Under the pieces are notes generated by a model. The model was not told where the DNA came from. It worked only from the letters and a program-made list of their open reading frames with translations, and did no database searches. From the NCBI GenBank assembly GCA_963637115.1, contig CAVHLO010000001.1, positions 244,333 through 308,332 of the forward strand: 64,000 nucleotides of DNA. The letters are read 5' to 3'. Made by a program: the position numbers and the translations under genes. Each line of letters opens with the position of its first letter. Position 1 is the stretch's first letter. Origin of the DNA: a bacterium. GTDB taxonomy: Bacteria; Patescibacteriota; Saccharimonadia; Saccharimonadales; Saccharimonadaceae. Below are positions 39,117-41,852 of the stretch, piece by piece.

Positions 39117-41852
39117 TTAGATGACTTTGAGTTGCTGTTTGAGACGGGAAATGAGGCGCTCTTTTTCGGCGATTTGGTCGCGGGTTTCTTTAACTAATTC
39201 GGCGGGGGCTTTTTCGACATAATTCGGGTTCGTCATCCGCAGATTCAGAGCGTCAAGTTCGCGGCCAACAGAGAGGATTTTTTCGGTCAAGGTGTCTTTA
39301 TATTCGCTGATTACTTTTTCGGGGACATCAAGATAGAGCTCGTGATTTGCGAGGGCAAGCCTCAATCCTCGAGGGGCGCCAGAGAGGGAATTAATGGTCG
39401 GGACCTTGGTCAGAGTCTTGATCAAGAGTTCATTGTCACTGATCAAACTGTCATTATCGTATAACAATGCGTATTTTTTCGCGTTATTGGTGCCTGGGAG
39501 GCTCTGCAGGGTGGTTCTAACCTCATTTACGATATTTCTTATGTTTTCGAATTCCTCGGCTAAAATCGGGTCATATTTGAGTTTTTCGGGCCATTTAGTG
39601 TTAGCGATAAAGCCGTCGGTCCAGCTCAAATTCTGCCAAATCGCTTCGGTAACAAATGGCGCAAAGGGGTGGAGGGCAATCAAAATGGTCTCGAGAGTGC
39701 GTTTTAGTAGGGGCGCGTTTTGGTAGAGTTTTTGGCTCTCTAGGAACCAGTCGGCGTATTTATCCCAAATTGTCTGGTAAAGCACCTCGATGGCCTCGGA
39801 AAAACGGTAATTTTTCATGCTGAAATCGAGAGTTTTTAGGCATTCGTTAATCTCGCGACAAATCCAGTCTTCGCCCATGTTATCTGTAGAATAATCCGCC
39901 AAAGTAGGTGTTTCCTGATTATCGACAATGTTTTGGACGAGGCGGGAGATGTTCCAGAGTTTGTTACAGAAATTACGAGAGGCAGTGACGGAGGCTTCAG
40001 AGAAGGCTTGGTTCAAGCCGGCGGAGCGACCCCTTAAAATGCCGAGACGGAAAGCGTCGGAACCGTATTTGGTGACGAGATCCATAGGGTTAATGACATT
40101 GCCCTTGGATTTGCTCATTTTTTTGCCGTGAGCATCAAGAACGAGACCGTGGAGATAGACTTCTTTAAATGGAACTTCACCGGTAACATAAAGCCCCATC
40201 ATAATCATACGCGCAACCCAAGCAAAGAGAATATCGGCGCCAGTTTCCATGACATTTAAGGGATAGTAGGGGTTGAAATTTTCTTCGGTCCAGTTGGTGC
40301 AGACGATTGGCCAATGGCTACTCGAGAACCAAGTGTCGAAAGTATCTTCGTCGCGGACGTATTTAACGCCGGCTTTTTCGATAACTTGGAGATTGGTGCG
40401 ACGATCAAAAATCCAATCTGGCTCGTCGGTTGCTTCGAGAGTGATTTTTCTGAACATCGGAATCGCAATGCCCCAAGGGATTTGGCGGGAAATGTTCCAA
40501 TCTTTTAGGTTTTTGAGATAATTAATTAAGACTTTTTGCTTGTTTTCGGGGTGGAATTTGATTTCGTTGTTTTCAAGATGCTTAATTGCGACTTTGGCGA
40601 GTTTTTCGACATCGATAAACCACTGTTCTTTGAGCATAGGCTCAATGGTGGCACCACATTTGTAGCAATGAGCCACAGAATGCTCGATTTTTTTCTCGCC
40701 CCTTAAAAAGCCACCGGCTTTTAGGTCTTTTAGGACTTGTTTGCGACATTCCACAGTAGTTAAACCATCATATTTTTCGGGGACGTTGATCATGGTGCCG
40801 TTTTCGGCAATAACTTGAATACGTTCAAGGTTGTGGCGTTCGCCAACTTCAAAATCGTCAAAATCGTGCGCAGGGGTGATTTTGACGGCACCGGTACCGT
40901 ATTCGGGGTCGGCGTGTTCATCGGCGATGATGGGGATTTCACGGTCGGTCAGTGGTAGCTTGACGGTTTTGCCGATTAGGTCTTTGTAACGGGCGTCGTT
41001 CGGGTTGACTGCGATGGCGGTGTCGCCGAAGAGGGTCTCGGGGCGAGTGGTAGAAATAATAATCGAAGCTACAGATACGTCTTCCTCGGAACGCTCCTTC
41101 GAGCCCGTCGTCACGGGTCTCAGTCGCTCCGTATTTGCCCCGTCGGCAAATATGCTCCTCGGAAGAGTATCTGTAGTTTTTCTGTCCACGACTTCGTATG
41201 CGATGTCCCAGAGTGTGCCTTTTTCGTCTTTGTATTCGACCTCGATGTCGGCGAAGGCGGTTTGGTGCTTCGGGCAGAAGTTGACGAGCTTTTCACCCCT
41301 GTAAATCATGCCGTCGTTCCACATTTTTTCGAAAGTGGTATAGACGCGGTCGATGACGTTTTCGTCGAGGGTGAAAGTCAAATCATTCCAAGAACAAGAG
41401 GTGCCGAGGGCACGAAGTTGGAGTTCCATATTGCCGCGCTGAGAGGCAACAAAGTCCCAAACTCGCGCGTAAAGTTCGTCGCGAGTAAATTCGAAACGGG
41501 TGTGACCGTGTTTTTCGAGTTCGCGCTCATACACGACCCAAGTTTCGAAACCAGCATGATCGGCGCCTGGAACATACCAAGCGGATTTGCCTTTTAGGCG
41601 ATAATAACGCGTCAAAGAGTCCTCGAGAGCGATAGTGAGACCGTGTCCGATATGGAGATTGCCGTTAGCGTTCGGCGGGGGCATAACAAGGGAAAAAGTG
41701 TGTTGTTTGTCGTTTTGGCGGTCGTCGACGCCGTCTCCATCGTTGTCGACAGGAAAAATCGAAATTTTAGGGTTAAAAACGCCACTGGCTTCCCAGGCGG
41801 CATAGATATCGCTTTCATATTCCCCCGGTTCATAACTACTCGAGAATTTCAT
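39117..41852 (-). CDS. valS: valine--tRNA ligase
   Basis: HIGH (PPPNANGNLHIGH), KMSKS, TTRPET, and a C-terminal coiled coil. Contains a 36-codon palindromic insertion. Confidence 0.95.
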   Translation of the reverse strand: MKFSSSYEPGEYESDIYAAWEASGVFNPKISIFPVDNDGDGVDDRQNDKQHTFSLVMPPPNANGNLHIGHGLTIALEDSLTRYYRLKGKSAWYVPGADHAGFETWVVYERELEKHGHTRFEFTRDELYARVWDFVASQRGNMELQLRALGTSCSWNDLTFTLDENVIDRVYTTFEKMWNDGMIYRGEKLVNFCPKHQTAFADIEVEYKDEKGTLWDIAYEVVDRKTTDTLPRSIFADGANTERLRPVTTGSKERSEEDVSVASIIISTTRPETLFGDTAIAVNPNDARYKDLIGKTVKLPLTDREIPIIADEHADPEYGTGAVKITPAHDFDDFEVGERHNLERIQVIAENGTMINVPEKYDGLTTVECRKQVLKDLKAGGFLRGEKKIEHSVAHCYKCGATIEPMLKEQWFIDVEKLAKVAIKHLENNEIKFHPENKQKVLINYLKNLKDWNISRQIPWGIAIPMFRKITLEATDEPDWIFDRRTNLQVIEKAGVKYVRDEDTFDTWFSSSHWPIVCTNWTEENFNPYYPLNVMETGADILFAWVARMIMMGLYVTGEVPFKEVYLHGLVLDAHGKKMSKSKGNVINPMDLVTKYGSDAFRLGILRGRSAGLNQAFSEASVTASRNFCNKLWNISRLVQNIVDNQETPTLADYSTDNMGEDWICREINECLKTLDFSMKNYRFSEAIEVLYQTIWDKYADWFLESQKLYQNAPLLKRTLETILIALHPFAPFVTEAIWQNLSWTDGFIANTKWPEKLKYDPILAEEFENIRNIVNEVRTTLQSLPGTNNAKKYALLYDNDSLISDNELLIKTLTKVPTINSLSGAPRGLRLALANHELYLDVPEKVISEYKDTLTEKILSVGRELDALNLRMTNPNYVEKAPAELVKETRDQIAEKERLISRLKQQLKVI
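41069..41176 (-). repeat. 108-nt palindromic element inserted in frame in valS
   Basis: Perfect 10-bp termini CTACAGATAC/GTATCTGTAG, subterminal TCTTCC/GGAAGA, and two internal hairpins (41101-41121, 41132-41152). Exactly 36 codons with no stop. Confidence 0.85.

Follow-up and report, generated by a model that had tools for sequence, protein, structure and literature searches.

The valS gene of a Candidatus Nanosyncoccus genome carries, in frame and directly before a conserved motif of the encoded valyl-tRNA synthetase (ValRS), a long DNA palindrome, raising the question of what kind of element this is and how it came to lie inside such a gene. We analysed a 64,000-nucleotide stretch of this genome (the window) together with 80 related valS loci, giving a sample of 81 loci and 1.57 Mb, or about 20 kb (~2%) per genome. 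A first-pass annotation had suspected a CPR-type genome, and its identity as Candidatus Nanosyncoccus, a member of the Saccharibacteria, bears this out. We consider it likely that the valS palindrome is a copy from a multi-family, non-autonomous set of palindromic repeats dispersed through the genomes of Candidatus Nanosyncoccus and of gut Saccharibacteria related to it. On this reading the repeats behave as selfish DNA in the manner of Rickettsia palindromic elements (RPEs), are translated as surface loops and spread in a strand-specific fashion. The features of the valS locus are as follows.

39117..41852, minus strand: valS, the host gene (911 aa), with the insert at a beta-hairpin tip directly before the TTRPET motif of the editing domain
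41066..41179, minus strand: family-A palindromic element in valS, from inverted-repeat search, fold, covariance model R1 and nhmmer
41066..41090, no strand assigned: outer-stem arm of the valS element (AAGCTACAGATAC and TCTTCCTCGGA), pairing with 41156-41179, from inverted repeats I1 and I3 and the fold
41101..41121, no strand assigned: inner hairpin P3, with apex CCCGTGACGACGGG (sense form), common to families A and B
41132..41152, no strand assigned: inner hairpin P2 (TATTTGCC-CCGTC-GGCAAATA), family-specific, from inverted repeat I5 and the fold
41156..41179, no strand assigned: second outer-stem arm of the valS element, from inverted repeats and the fold

The palindrome described in the first-pass annotation at 41069-41176 reads as claimed, with termini CTACAGATAC (41069-41078) and GTATCTGTAG (41167-41176), then TCTTCC/GGAAGA, and two inner hairpins. 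The palindrome itself is thus real, but its proposed length of 108 nt falls short of a true size of about 114 nt, the outer arms found by inverted-repeat search reaching 41066-41078 and 41167-41179. It is likewise in frame and free of stop codons in the valS reading frame, as had been proposed, but does not coincide exactly with 36 codons, being offset by one base (codon T226 is 41177-41175); its product spans approximately residues 226-261, TTDTLPRSIFADGANTERLRPVTTGSKERSEEDVSV, plus flanking stem codons. Covariance model R1 scores the copy at 114.7 bits (41062-41181, minus strand), and nhmmer delimits a core at 41080-41166. Folded over 126 nt, the element forms a near-perfect Y-shaped palindrome at -58.6 kcal/mol, against -31.6 ± 3.3 kcal/mol for 200 dinucleotide shuffles, none of which folded as well (z = -8.1). 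The outer stem shows compensatory changes in the orthologous copies of loci L006, L011 and L214, the apex pairs of P3 are invariant in 37-39 of 39 copies, and the apex 14-mer matched 83 known copies and just 3 other places in 1.57 Mb. Measured against the empty ortholog closest to it (locus L003, 'AYDDKIIV'), valS holds about 120-123 nt of extra DNA, equivalent to 40 aa. All 17 distinct sequences in the 90% cluster that contains a ValRS 99% identical to that of the window are 911 aa long and carry the insert, and locus L001 holds an element 100% identical to the valS copy, indicating that the insert is not an assembly artefact.

The inserted residues are specific to this lineage, as had been anticipated. 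The insertion site holds 36-40 residues here, 5 in Thermus (1GAX), 2 in the closest empty ortholog and at most 12 in 75 of 121 Saccharibacteria ValRS orthologs, 41 of the 121 having no insert at any site. In the alignment with 1GAX, query residues 222-263 stand in place of chain residues 205-209. An AF2 model of ValRS, used for the surroundings of the insert given its poor overall pLDDT of 48, places residues 225-260 as coil (pLDDT < 50) between strands at 205-222 and 263-268, which supports a predicted surface-loop position for the insert. At about 78% identity, ValRS proteins span 867-1026 aa. The motif PVTTG/PVATG recurs.

The window was expected to contain three copies, and does: besides the valS element, a full copy and a decayed remnant lie side by side in a second gene.

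36067..37164, minus strand: FemAB-family host gene with two inserts (Pfam FemAB)
36415..36536, minus strand: family-B palindromic element, full copy, in frame in the FemAB-family gene (z = -7.8; inverted repeat I17)
36541..36602, minus strand: decayed A-type remnant of 58-62 nt, in frame in the same gene, consisting of outer stem plus core fragment with an internal deletion

The Pfam match covers residues 254-358 only, C-terminal to both inserts. The family-B copy has the architecture and P3 apex of the valS copy, is read in another codon phase and is also recovered by the family-A covariance model (R1, 50.5 bits; nhmmer, E = 1e-16). The remnant matches family-A copies of loci L013, L004, L075 and L073 in their stem and 3' parts.

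Further copies proved numerous in relatives, in coding and non-coding DNA alike. Families A and B together gave 129 non-overlapping nhmmer copies in the 1.57 Mb, many of them orthologous and hence not independent events, and several further palindromic families occur in the Saccharibacteria loci. Roughly a third of the valS loci lack any copy. Elements are 100-130 nt long, with a copy density outside valS of about 1 per 20 kb. Long ORFs contain 124 of the 129 copies, the hosts belonging to five protein families (ValRS, a P-type ATPase, TsaD and two FemAB proteins), and these genic copies are always in frame and stop-free, at a few permissive surface loops. Four of the six reading frames are commonly used, the family-A frame with invariable stops is almost never used, and reading of one and the same core in four or more frames gives unrelated peptides. 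In an unbiased survey of lineage-specific protein inserts of at least 18 aa, 127 of 182 (70%) fold with z < -3. An independent metagenome sample placed 9 of 39 copies in non-coding DNA; about 75 of 120 metagenome pattern matches were set aside as chance occurrences in high-GC contigs. Twelve pattern matches in IMG/VR viral contigs were also attributed to chance, all lying in high-GC contigs and lacking nhmmer support.

The statistics of frame and stop codons suggest that each element is read through with its host gene, at the RNA and the protein level, to form a disordered loop, and selection would then remove insertions that shift the frame, bring a stop codon or strike structured parts of the protein. 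The contrary reading, that the segment is an intervening sequence (a mini-intron, intein or translational bypass element) removed before or during protein synthesis, draws on the strong RNA structure of the valS element, and insertions in rRNA genes are a known trait of CPR genomes. We regard it as extremely improbable: an excised segment would require neither frame nor stop avoidance, both of which are kept by 124 of 129 copies, and 108-120 nt (36-40 aa) is far below the size of a self-splicing intron (≥200 nt) or an intein (≥130 aa). No Rfam family matched the element either; across the whole window at gathering thresholds and across 36.3-41.4 kb at E ≤ 5, the search returned only tRNAs and a chance miRNA-like match on the family-B palindrome.

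Irrespective of which way the host gene runs, the copies take their orientation from the GC-skew strand. No locus out of 53 holds copies in mixed orientations, and orientation tracks the sign of the skew: copies are sense in 103 of 103 cases in genes of the C-rich strand and antisense in 21 of 21 cases in genes of the G-rich strand, including all TsaD copies. Once skew-oriented, 696 of 696 homologous pairs from all families match +/+. The metagenome sample follows the same rule, with 30 copies consistent, 5 inconsistent and 4 ambiguous, so that 5 of the 35 clear copies deviate; relative to the host gene, 16 copies lie in the same and 14 in the opposite direction. The skew belongs to the chromosome strand, since GC3 skew is -0.41 or +0.32 according to strand, and the C-rich strand carries 76% of coding DNA, contrary to the usual rule. 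We used GC skew as the proxy for replication strand; in an origin search for the leading/lagging call, the only skew switches (L010 and L009) were islands of unknown ORFs without dnaA.

That the repeat is instead a functional RNA or protein module, with an mRNA hairpin (acting in stability, translation pausing or regulation) or a peptide that benefits the host, appears highly improbable. Many compensatory changes maintain the structure, the insert is fixed in the window species (17 of 17 ValRS variants) and the PVTTG/PVATG motif recurs, all as such a module would have it, but the orientation of copies follows the DNA strand rather than transcription, one core yields unrelated peptides in several frames, many ValRS orthologs have no insert at all, close relatives swap families and copies occur in non-coding DNA too. 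Stem mismatches argue in the same direction: when the asymmetry between G:T and A:C was split by gene direction, it did not flip, which led us to reject an mRNA-level structure and indicates that the structure acts at the level of DNA.

Within the copies, conservation is concentrated in the interior. In each, TTCGAG and CGAGAA bound a core of about 71-90 nt that is conserved and holds the two inner hairpins; around it lies an outer stem of 12-27 bp, copy-specific and almost perfectly self-complementary. Copies from the same genome share sharply bounded identical blocks of 90, 82 and 81 nt and have unrelated outer stems; the block boundaries, TTCGAG and CGAGAA, fall within the outer stem, and the termini are the least conserved part. 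Subfamilies at different sites have CCAGARRATGC, the inner 10-11 bp of this stem, in common, and double-sided compensatory changes were found at 23 of 28 predicted pairs.

This layout bears directly on whether the repeats are ordinary MITEs, that is, deletion derivatives of a DDE-type insertion sequence moved in trans through their terminal inverted repeats, with the strand bias secondary. Bacterial MITEs with in-frame fusions (ERIC, BOX, Correia, Nezha and QMITE; PMC10969869) are likewise small, non-coding, bounded by inverted repeats and sometimes translated in host ORFs, and the small size, dispersal, inverted-repeat ends and lack of a transposase gene seen here, together with the CCAGARRATGC inner stem common to subfamilies at different sites, would suit that class. 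MITEs, however, have conserved terminal repeats recognised by a transposase and flanking direct target duplications, whereas here the termini vary and the interior is conserved, no insertion sequence with matching ends occurs in about 1.8 Mb and no direct target-site duplication is visible. Transposition of double-stranded DNA by a DDE enzyme also gives no ground for a near-absolute lock to the skew strand, and we therefore judge a MITE origin unlikely. Target-site duplications were sought in 70 copies and in comparisons of filled with empty sites, the latter found by joining the flanks and searching with blastn for collinear matches; none was visible, and because the empty sites are only 70-83% identical, neither base-level boundaries nor a target-site duplication can be called from them. 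Beside the copies we saw no conserved flanking tetranucleotide or target motif.

The copy-specific and yet perfectly paired outer stems would be explained if, after insertion, the palindrome grew outward by intrastrand template switching that copied one host flank in inverted form. Two worked examples form the basis for this proposal: in L002, the right arm ATTTATCATCT is an inverted copy of the conserved left-side host codons GAT GAT AAA, and the outermost right arm in L075 extends over conserved Ile-Pro codons of the host. Quasipalindrome correction, or intrastrand template switching, makes imperfect inverted repeats perfect and extends them into their flanks, and it fits such stems; it is, however, a mutation process rather than a mobile element, and it leaves identical cores at new sites unexplained. 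The same limit weighs on the reading in which there is no mobile element at all, the palindromes arising by local template-switch mutation and resembling one another through gene conversion. Outer stems apparently copied from local flanks, cores homogenised within genomes and the lack of a transposase match in 1.57 Mb of loci speak for that reading, but cores of 80-90 nt that are 80-100% identical lie at unrelated sites and at sites empty in close relatives, so a pre-formed core must have come from elsewhere, and we consider a purely local origin very unlikely. It overlaps with the template-switch variant of our preferred explanation.

The same loops have been invaded repeatedly and independently by different families. 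Depending on the species, one and the same protein loop holds family A or family B, members of clusters with at least 90% identity carry different elements at the same site, and in L213 fragments of several elements lie in layers at a single site. Under the mobile-repeat explanation that we favour, cores may be replaced or homogenised within a genome, and old copies may decay through symmetric internal deletions into short stem-only remnants, of which examples are present at the valS site. A pre-existing palindromic target, an idea taken from GATGATATCATC at one empty DDII site, was discarded, as most empty DDII sites have other codons and form no palindrome.

Among known systems, the RPEs come closest. 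These are dispersed hairpin repeats of 100-150 bp, both intergenic and genic in frame (Ogata et al. 2000, 2002; PMC10969869, PMC1779305). RPEs and the protein-coding palindromes of Wolbachia share with the present elements an in-frame position in unrelated housekeeping genes, including aminoacyl-tRNA synthetases, an organisation into several families, lineage-specific proliferation and the lack of a known transposase (PMC10969869, PMC1779305). Both kinds of host also have a small genome and rely on another cell; here, in contrast, the host phylum is unrelated (Saccharibacteria/CPR), and the cells are extracellular epibionts. The RPE-like reading put forward in the first-pass annotation holds as a likeness of behaviour: the repeats are interspersed, of about 100-150 bp, palindromic, and in frame without stops in unrelated genes as well as present in non-coding DNA. 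Membership of the Rickettsia RPE families themselves is unlikely, and because the host is a Saccharibacterium we do not file the elements there but describe them as working like RPEs. Three features seen here do not form part of the RPE descriptions consulted, namely an orientation locked to the skew strand, outer stems that are copy-specific around a conserved core, and the reuse of one loop by different families, and a further contrast is that the Saccharibacteria elements make up about 70% of lineage-specific protein inserts in this sample. We found no prior description of palindromic repeats in Saccharibacteria: the literature on Saccharibacteria and Patescibacteria yielded nothing relevant on palindromic, MITE or in-frame repeats, and the paper naming Nanosyncoccus mentions neither palindromes nor skew nor transposases.

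IS200/IS605 elements with their PATEs, and REP/BIME sequences with RAYT, resemble the repeats in another respect, namely orientation by replication strand, internal hairpins, no obvious target-site duplication and precise boundaries of the mobile core (PMC5027513, PMC3971601, PMC6006769). They differ in that IS200/IS605 ends have subterminal hairpins without terminal inverted repeats, whereas here two internal hairpins are enclosed by long terminal stems; in that IS200/IS605 uses a conserved target of 4-5 nt on the 5' side of its left end, of which we saw none; and in that REPs are extragenic, whereas most copies here are genic. Integron attC sites are also structured, strand-specific and variable in sequence; as a candidate model they seem improbable, the elements lying outside cassette arrays with no GTTRRRY-type core sites seen.

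Propagation would be strand-specific and would most probably take place on single-stranded DNA at the replication fork. One possible route is 'peel and paste' transposition of the IS200/IS605 type, and another is a copy process based on template switching during replication. A search for a Y1/HUH transposase with four approximate queries (IS608, ISDra2, IS200 and RAYT) gave no phmmer match in six-frame ORFs of the 81 loci (1.57 Mb, about 20 kb per genome). More speculatively, the repeats may owe their spread to a replication-coupled mechanism on single strands that has not been described before, whether a novel HUH-type enzyme or a 'copy and fold-back' by template switching without any transposase. 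It would write the Y-shaped core in one polarity relative to the fork and then palindromise the host flanks; on this tentative view, new protein segments in Saccharibacteria could arise chiefly in this way, and the same logic might explain the mobility of Rickettsia RPEs.

Protein-coding palindromic repeats have hitherto been seen as a peculiarity of Rickettsia and Wolbachia, their movement unexplained for more than 20 years. With a far richer case now seen independently in a CPR lineage, the phenomenon looks like a recurrent outcome in small, host-dependent genomes, which have almost no intergenic space, so that selfish DNA survives only where it is harmlessly translated. The skew-locked orientation independent of transcription, the sharp core boundaries and the apparently flank-copied outer stems provide a handle on the mechanism. 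The elements explain protein length variation in Saccharibacteria, as in the ValRS range given above, and such inserts can corrupt alignments, which matters for annotation, orthology, structure prediction and CPR phylogenomics. They also mark permissive loops in essential proteins and therefore amount to a natural insertion-tolerance map.

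The palindrome at 41069-41176 reads as the first-pass annotation described it, with 10-nt ends (CTACAGATAC and GTATCTGTAG) followed by TCTTCC/GGAAGA and with two inner hairpins (41101-41121 and 41132-41152). The inverted repeat runs 3 bases further on each side (41066-41179), and of the claim that it coincides exactly with 36 stop-free codons, the lack of a stop codon holds while the codon register is off by one base. As a single strand, the element is predicted to adopt a Y-shaped fold in which a long outer stem carries two inner hairpins, with a fold energy for the region of -58.6 kcal/mol versus -31.6 +/- 3.3 kcal/mol for 200 dinucleotide shuffles (z = -8.1). 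A sliding fold scan with 120-nt windows ranked both it and 36421-36540 in the top four of the whole window for over-structure, and neither region matched an Rfam family. The most over-structured of all was an AT-rich palindrome between divergent ORFs (61981-62046; 30-nt arms, 83% complementary) that is unrelated to these GC-rich elements. The host gene and the second palindrome used as a query are:

39117-41852, minus strand: valS ORF, 911 codons, enclosing the palindrome, with no stop codon in the element
36421-36531: second query palindrome, within the neighbouring FemAB gene

Alignment of ValRS orthologs, proposed earlier as a check, confirmed that the extra residues are lineage-specific. 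Thermus thermophilus ValRS (1GAX) aligns well with residues 52-221 and 264-908 of the window protein, and the 42 intervening residues stand in place of 1GAX chain residues 205-209, directly before the editing-domain motif (TTRPET here, TVRPET in Thermus). The best 120 homologs are all from Saccharibacteria, mostly at 72-82% identity (the closest up to 99%), and range from 867 to 1026 aa. Across the 121 aligned sequences, this position (site 1) holds at least 25 extra residues in 42, comprising at least 7 unrelated-looking peptide types, and at most 12 in 75. Another site, which follows residue 648, is occupied in 59 sequences, two more sites are occupied less often, and 41 orthologs lack an insert at all four. 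An AlphaFold model that is poor overall (pLDDT 48) shows a locally confident editing domain in which residues 225-260 form a low-confidence coil between two strands. The insert is real and fixed in the species, because all 17 distinct sequences in the 90% cluster of P0001, a ValRS 99% identical to that of the window, are 911 aa long, and because the element on an independently assembled contig (L001) is 100% identical to the valS copy.

Scanning a genome collection with ValRS yielded 80 loci (1.5 Mb), most of them labelled as Candidatus Nanosyncoccus or Saccharibacteria MAGs from the guts of ruminants and other animals, and a few carrying other titles. Blastn searches with the two palindromes returned many copies at other positions in these loci (75-92% identity), and iterated nhmmer resolved 129 non-overlapping copies, so that the absence of further copies from the genome and its relatives, a possibility raised by the first-pass annotation, is not what was found. 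The copies form two families, A (the valS copy) and B (the FemAB-gene copy), with a common architecture and a common apex of one inner hairpin, CCCGTRRCGACGGG. A family-A covariance model detected the family-B copy of the window (50.5 bits) and, with filters off across the whole window, nothing beyond it; of the three copies initially counted there, the valS and FemAB copies stand, and the third (36541-36602) is what remains of an A-type copy after internal deletion. Ortholog alignments, surveyed without bias, yielded 182 in-frame inserts that are lineage-specific and measure at least 18 aa; their fold z is below -4 in 110 cases and below -3 in 127, and clustering them gave at least 4 families besides A and B. 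A core-pattern scan of metagenomes added ~45 loci with genuine copies (GC 0.39-0.55), again with P-type ATPase among the hosts, and produced only chance matches in viral contigs. Contigs of higher GC carry possible distant copies in CysRS and FtsK genes, with nhmmer E-values of 1e-6 and 2e-8:

L137 230-296: possible distant copy in a CysRS or FtsK gene, contig GC 0.53-0.55
L179 327-388: possible distant copy in a CysRS or FtsK gene, contig GC 0.53-0.55

The superfamily may reach past Nanosyncoccus, since the closest proteins of the CysRS contig are from Saccharibacteria at only 50-58% identity.

The window also holds a lineage-specific 39-aa insert (45121-45238; EENPTADKNRTSAKNARVENIIQNGGGVHAGRTSAKNAL) in a RhuM/Fic ORF (44920-46065). 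The insert has a higher AT content and a fold z of -4.2, and is a member of another small family, seen in that gene family only. This gene follows tRNA-Ser(CGA) and two ~76 nt tandem copies, each with the tRNA 3' end as its terminus (44641-44885), and at 30932-31117 the 3' end and terminator of tRNA-Gln are duplicated 76 nt downstream; both duplications resemble att-site scars left by integrative elements.

Copy alignments showed a conserved interior and variable outermost 12-27 bp on each side, the two sides being complementary in every copy, and RNAalifold found double-sided compensatory changes in 23 of 28 pairs. Copies within one genome share sharply bounded identical blocks of 90 nt (L011), 82 nt (L017) and 81 nt (L075), outside which their stems are unrelated. 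Cores appear to be replaced or converted, because the ATPase-site copy of L075 combines the outer stem of its orthologs with the core of its paralog. Two worked cases suggest that the outermost stems derive from host flank: in L002, the host codons GAT GAT AAA, common to the closest empty ortholog (L003), precede the element and recur inverted after it (ATTTATCATCT) before host sequence resumes; in L075, the outermost part of the right arm, complementary to the left arm, coincides in part with conserved host Ile-Pro codons. Empty sites generally lack a palindrome, which argues that stems are made during or after insertion rather than being present beforehand.

Copies concentrate at a few positions in each protein, and each position is filled by family A in some species and by B or others elsewhere. 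At valS site 1, members differ even within clusters of at least 90% identity, P0002 carrying an A-type peptide and P0255 and P0256 a different family. Three layers are found at site 1 of L213, namely the 5' part of an A copy, the 5' part of another family with its stem, and a complete A copy, and short loops such as CCAAAAGATGCATCTTTAGC in L013 are stem-only leftovers of deleted copies. At site 2 of L015, the P3 hairpin of a family-A copy (11944-12060) holds a 33-nt nested insertion exactly at its apex.

As proposed earlier, we compared coding with intergenic copy numbers. Long ORFs contain 124 of the 129 copies in loci that are 88% coding, the hosts being ValRS, P-type ATPase, TsaD and two FemAB-family proteins. 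Coding DNA is tolerant of the elements rather than preferred by them, because the metagenome sample has 30 of 39 copies in genes and 9 in non-coding DNA. The apex falls in codon phases 0, 1 and 2 in 68, 24 and 2 sense copies and in 10, 10 and 1 antisense copies, respectively. Most frames are open in most copies, and in family A the one frame with stops in every copy is almost never used. Such a pattern would be expected of selection on an element kept in the mRNA and translated; a spliced-out element would have no need of it.

The most striking result is that orientation is locked to the strand. None of 53 loci carrying family-A or -B copies has mixed orientation; orientation tracks the sign of locus GC skew, and the C-rich strand always carries the valS-sense form. 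This skew belongs to the chromosome strand, not to transcription (GC3 skew -0.41 for genes with the C-rich strand as sense strand, +0.32 for the rest). Genes on the C-rich strand hold 103 copies, all sense, and those on the G-rich strand hold 21, all antisense. The antisense group includes valS itself in five loci with an inverted region (L025, L042, L045, L057 and L070), whose antisense copies are thus independent insertions into the same loop. Among 111 palindromic inserts of any family, all 696 homologous pairs (margin at least 15 bits) were +/+ after skew orientation, 242 of them with host genes on opposite strands. An independent metagenome sample kept the skew rule in 30 cases, broke it in 5 and was ambiguous in 4; relative to the host gene, 16 copies had the same and 14 the opposite orientation. 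The rule-breaking contigs (L182, 2.6 kb with three copies; L183, 2.4 kb with two; L105, L149 and L152), two of which combine the two orientations in a 2 kb span, may be either genuine exceptions or local inversions of recent date. Stem mismatch types (G:T versus A:C) do not flip with gene direction. Together, the skew lock, its independence of the host gene and the unflipped mismatches indicate a process that acts on DNA and is linked to the replication strand, and they disfavour an mRNA-level function.

The window + strand shows a very strong GC skew throughout (+0.1 to +0.35 in each 4 kb), and ~76% of coding DNA in the window and L001-L080 lies on the C-rich strand; in Nanosyncoccus, replication meets most genes head-on unless skew polarity is the reverse of the usual one. 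Opposite-skew islands (L009, about 3-7 kb; L010, 1-8 kb) carry large ORFs (940-1116 aa) without a Pfam match, adjoining PIN and HIT genes, and could be recently acquired or inverted segments.

We propose that the elements are selfish, non-autonomous palindromic repeats, translated as disordered loops in the manner of Rickettsia palindromic elements (RPEs), with selection leaving genic copies solely in permissive loops and open frames. The strand lock suggests that propagation would include a single-strand, replication-coupled step. Strand specificity is a known property of the IS200/IS605 'peel and paste' pathway (PMC5027513, PMC3971601, PMC6006769), but an IS200/IS605 affiliation is made less likely by several findings: the elements have terminal stems, no conserved target was seen, and no Y1/HUH gene was found in the sampled DNA. 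A template-switch copy process would be an alternative to 'peel and paste'. On the two examples, the best explanation for the outer stems would be intrastrand template switching, by which host flanks become palindromic.

RPEs are 100-150 bp repeats, abundant in intergenic and coding regions, often in frame, with lineage-specific proliferation (PMC1779305, PMC10969869). The Saccharibacteria elements agree with them in every functional criterion tested, a likeness of function; sequence membership in the RPE families is unlikely, and their host phylum is unrelated to RPE hosts; unlike MITEs, they lack conserved termini. No account of elements of this kind in Saccharibacteria or Patescibacteria turned up in full-text literature searches. 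New here are the strand lock, the organisation into core and stems, and the scale, the elements making up ~70% of lineage-specific protein inserts in the sample surveyed.
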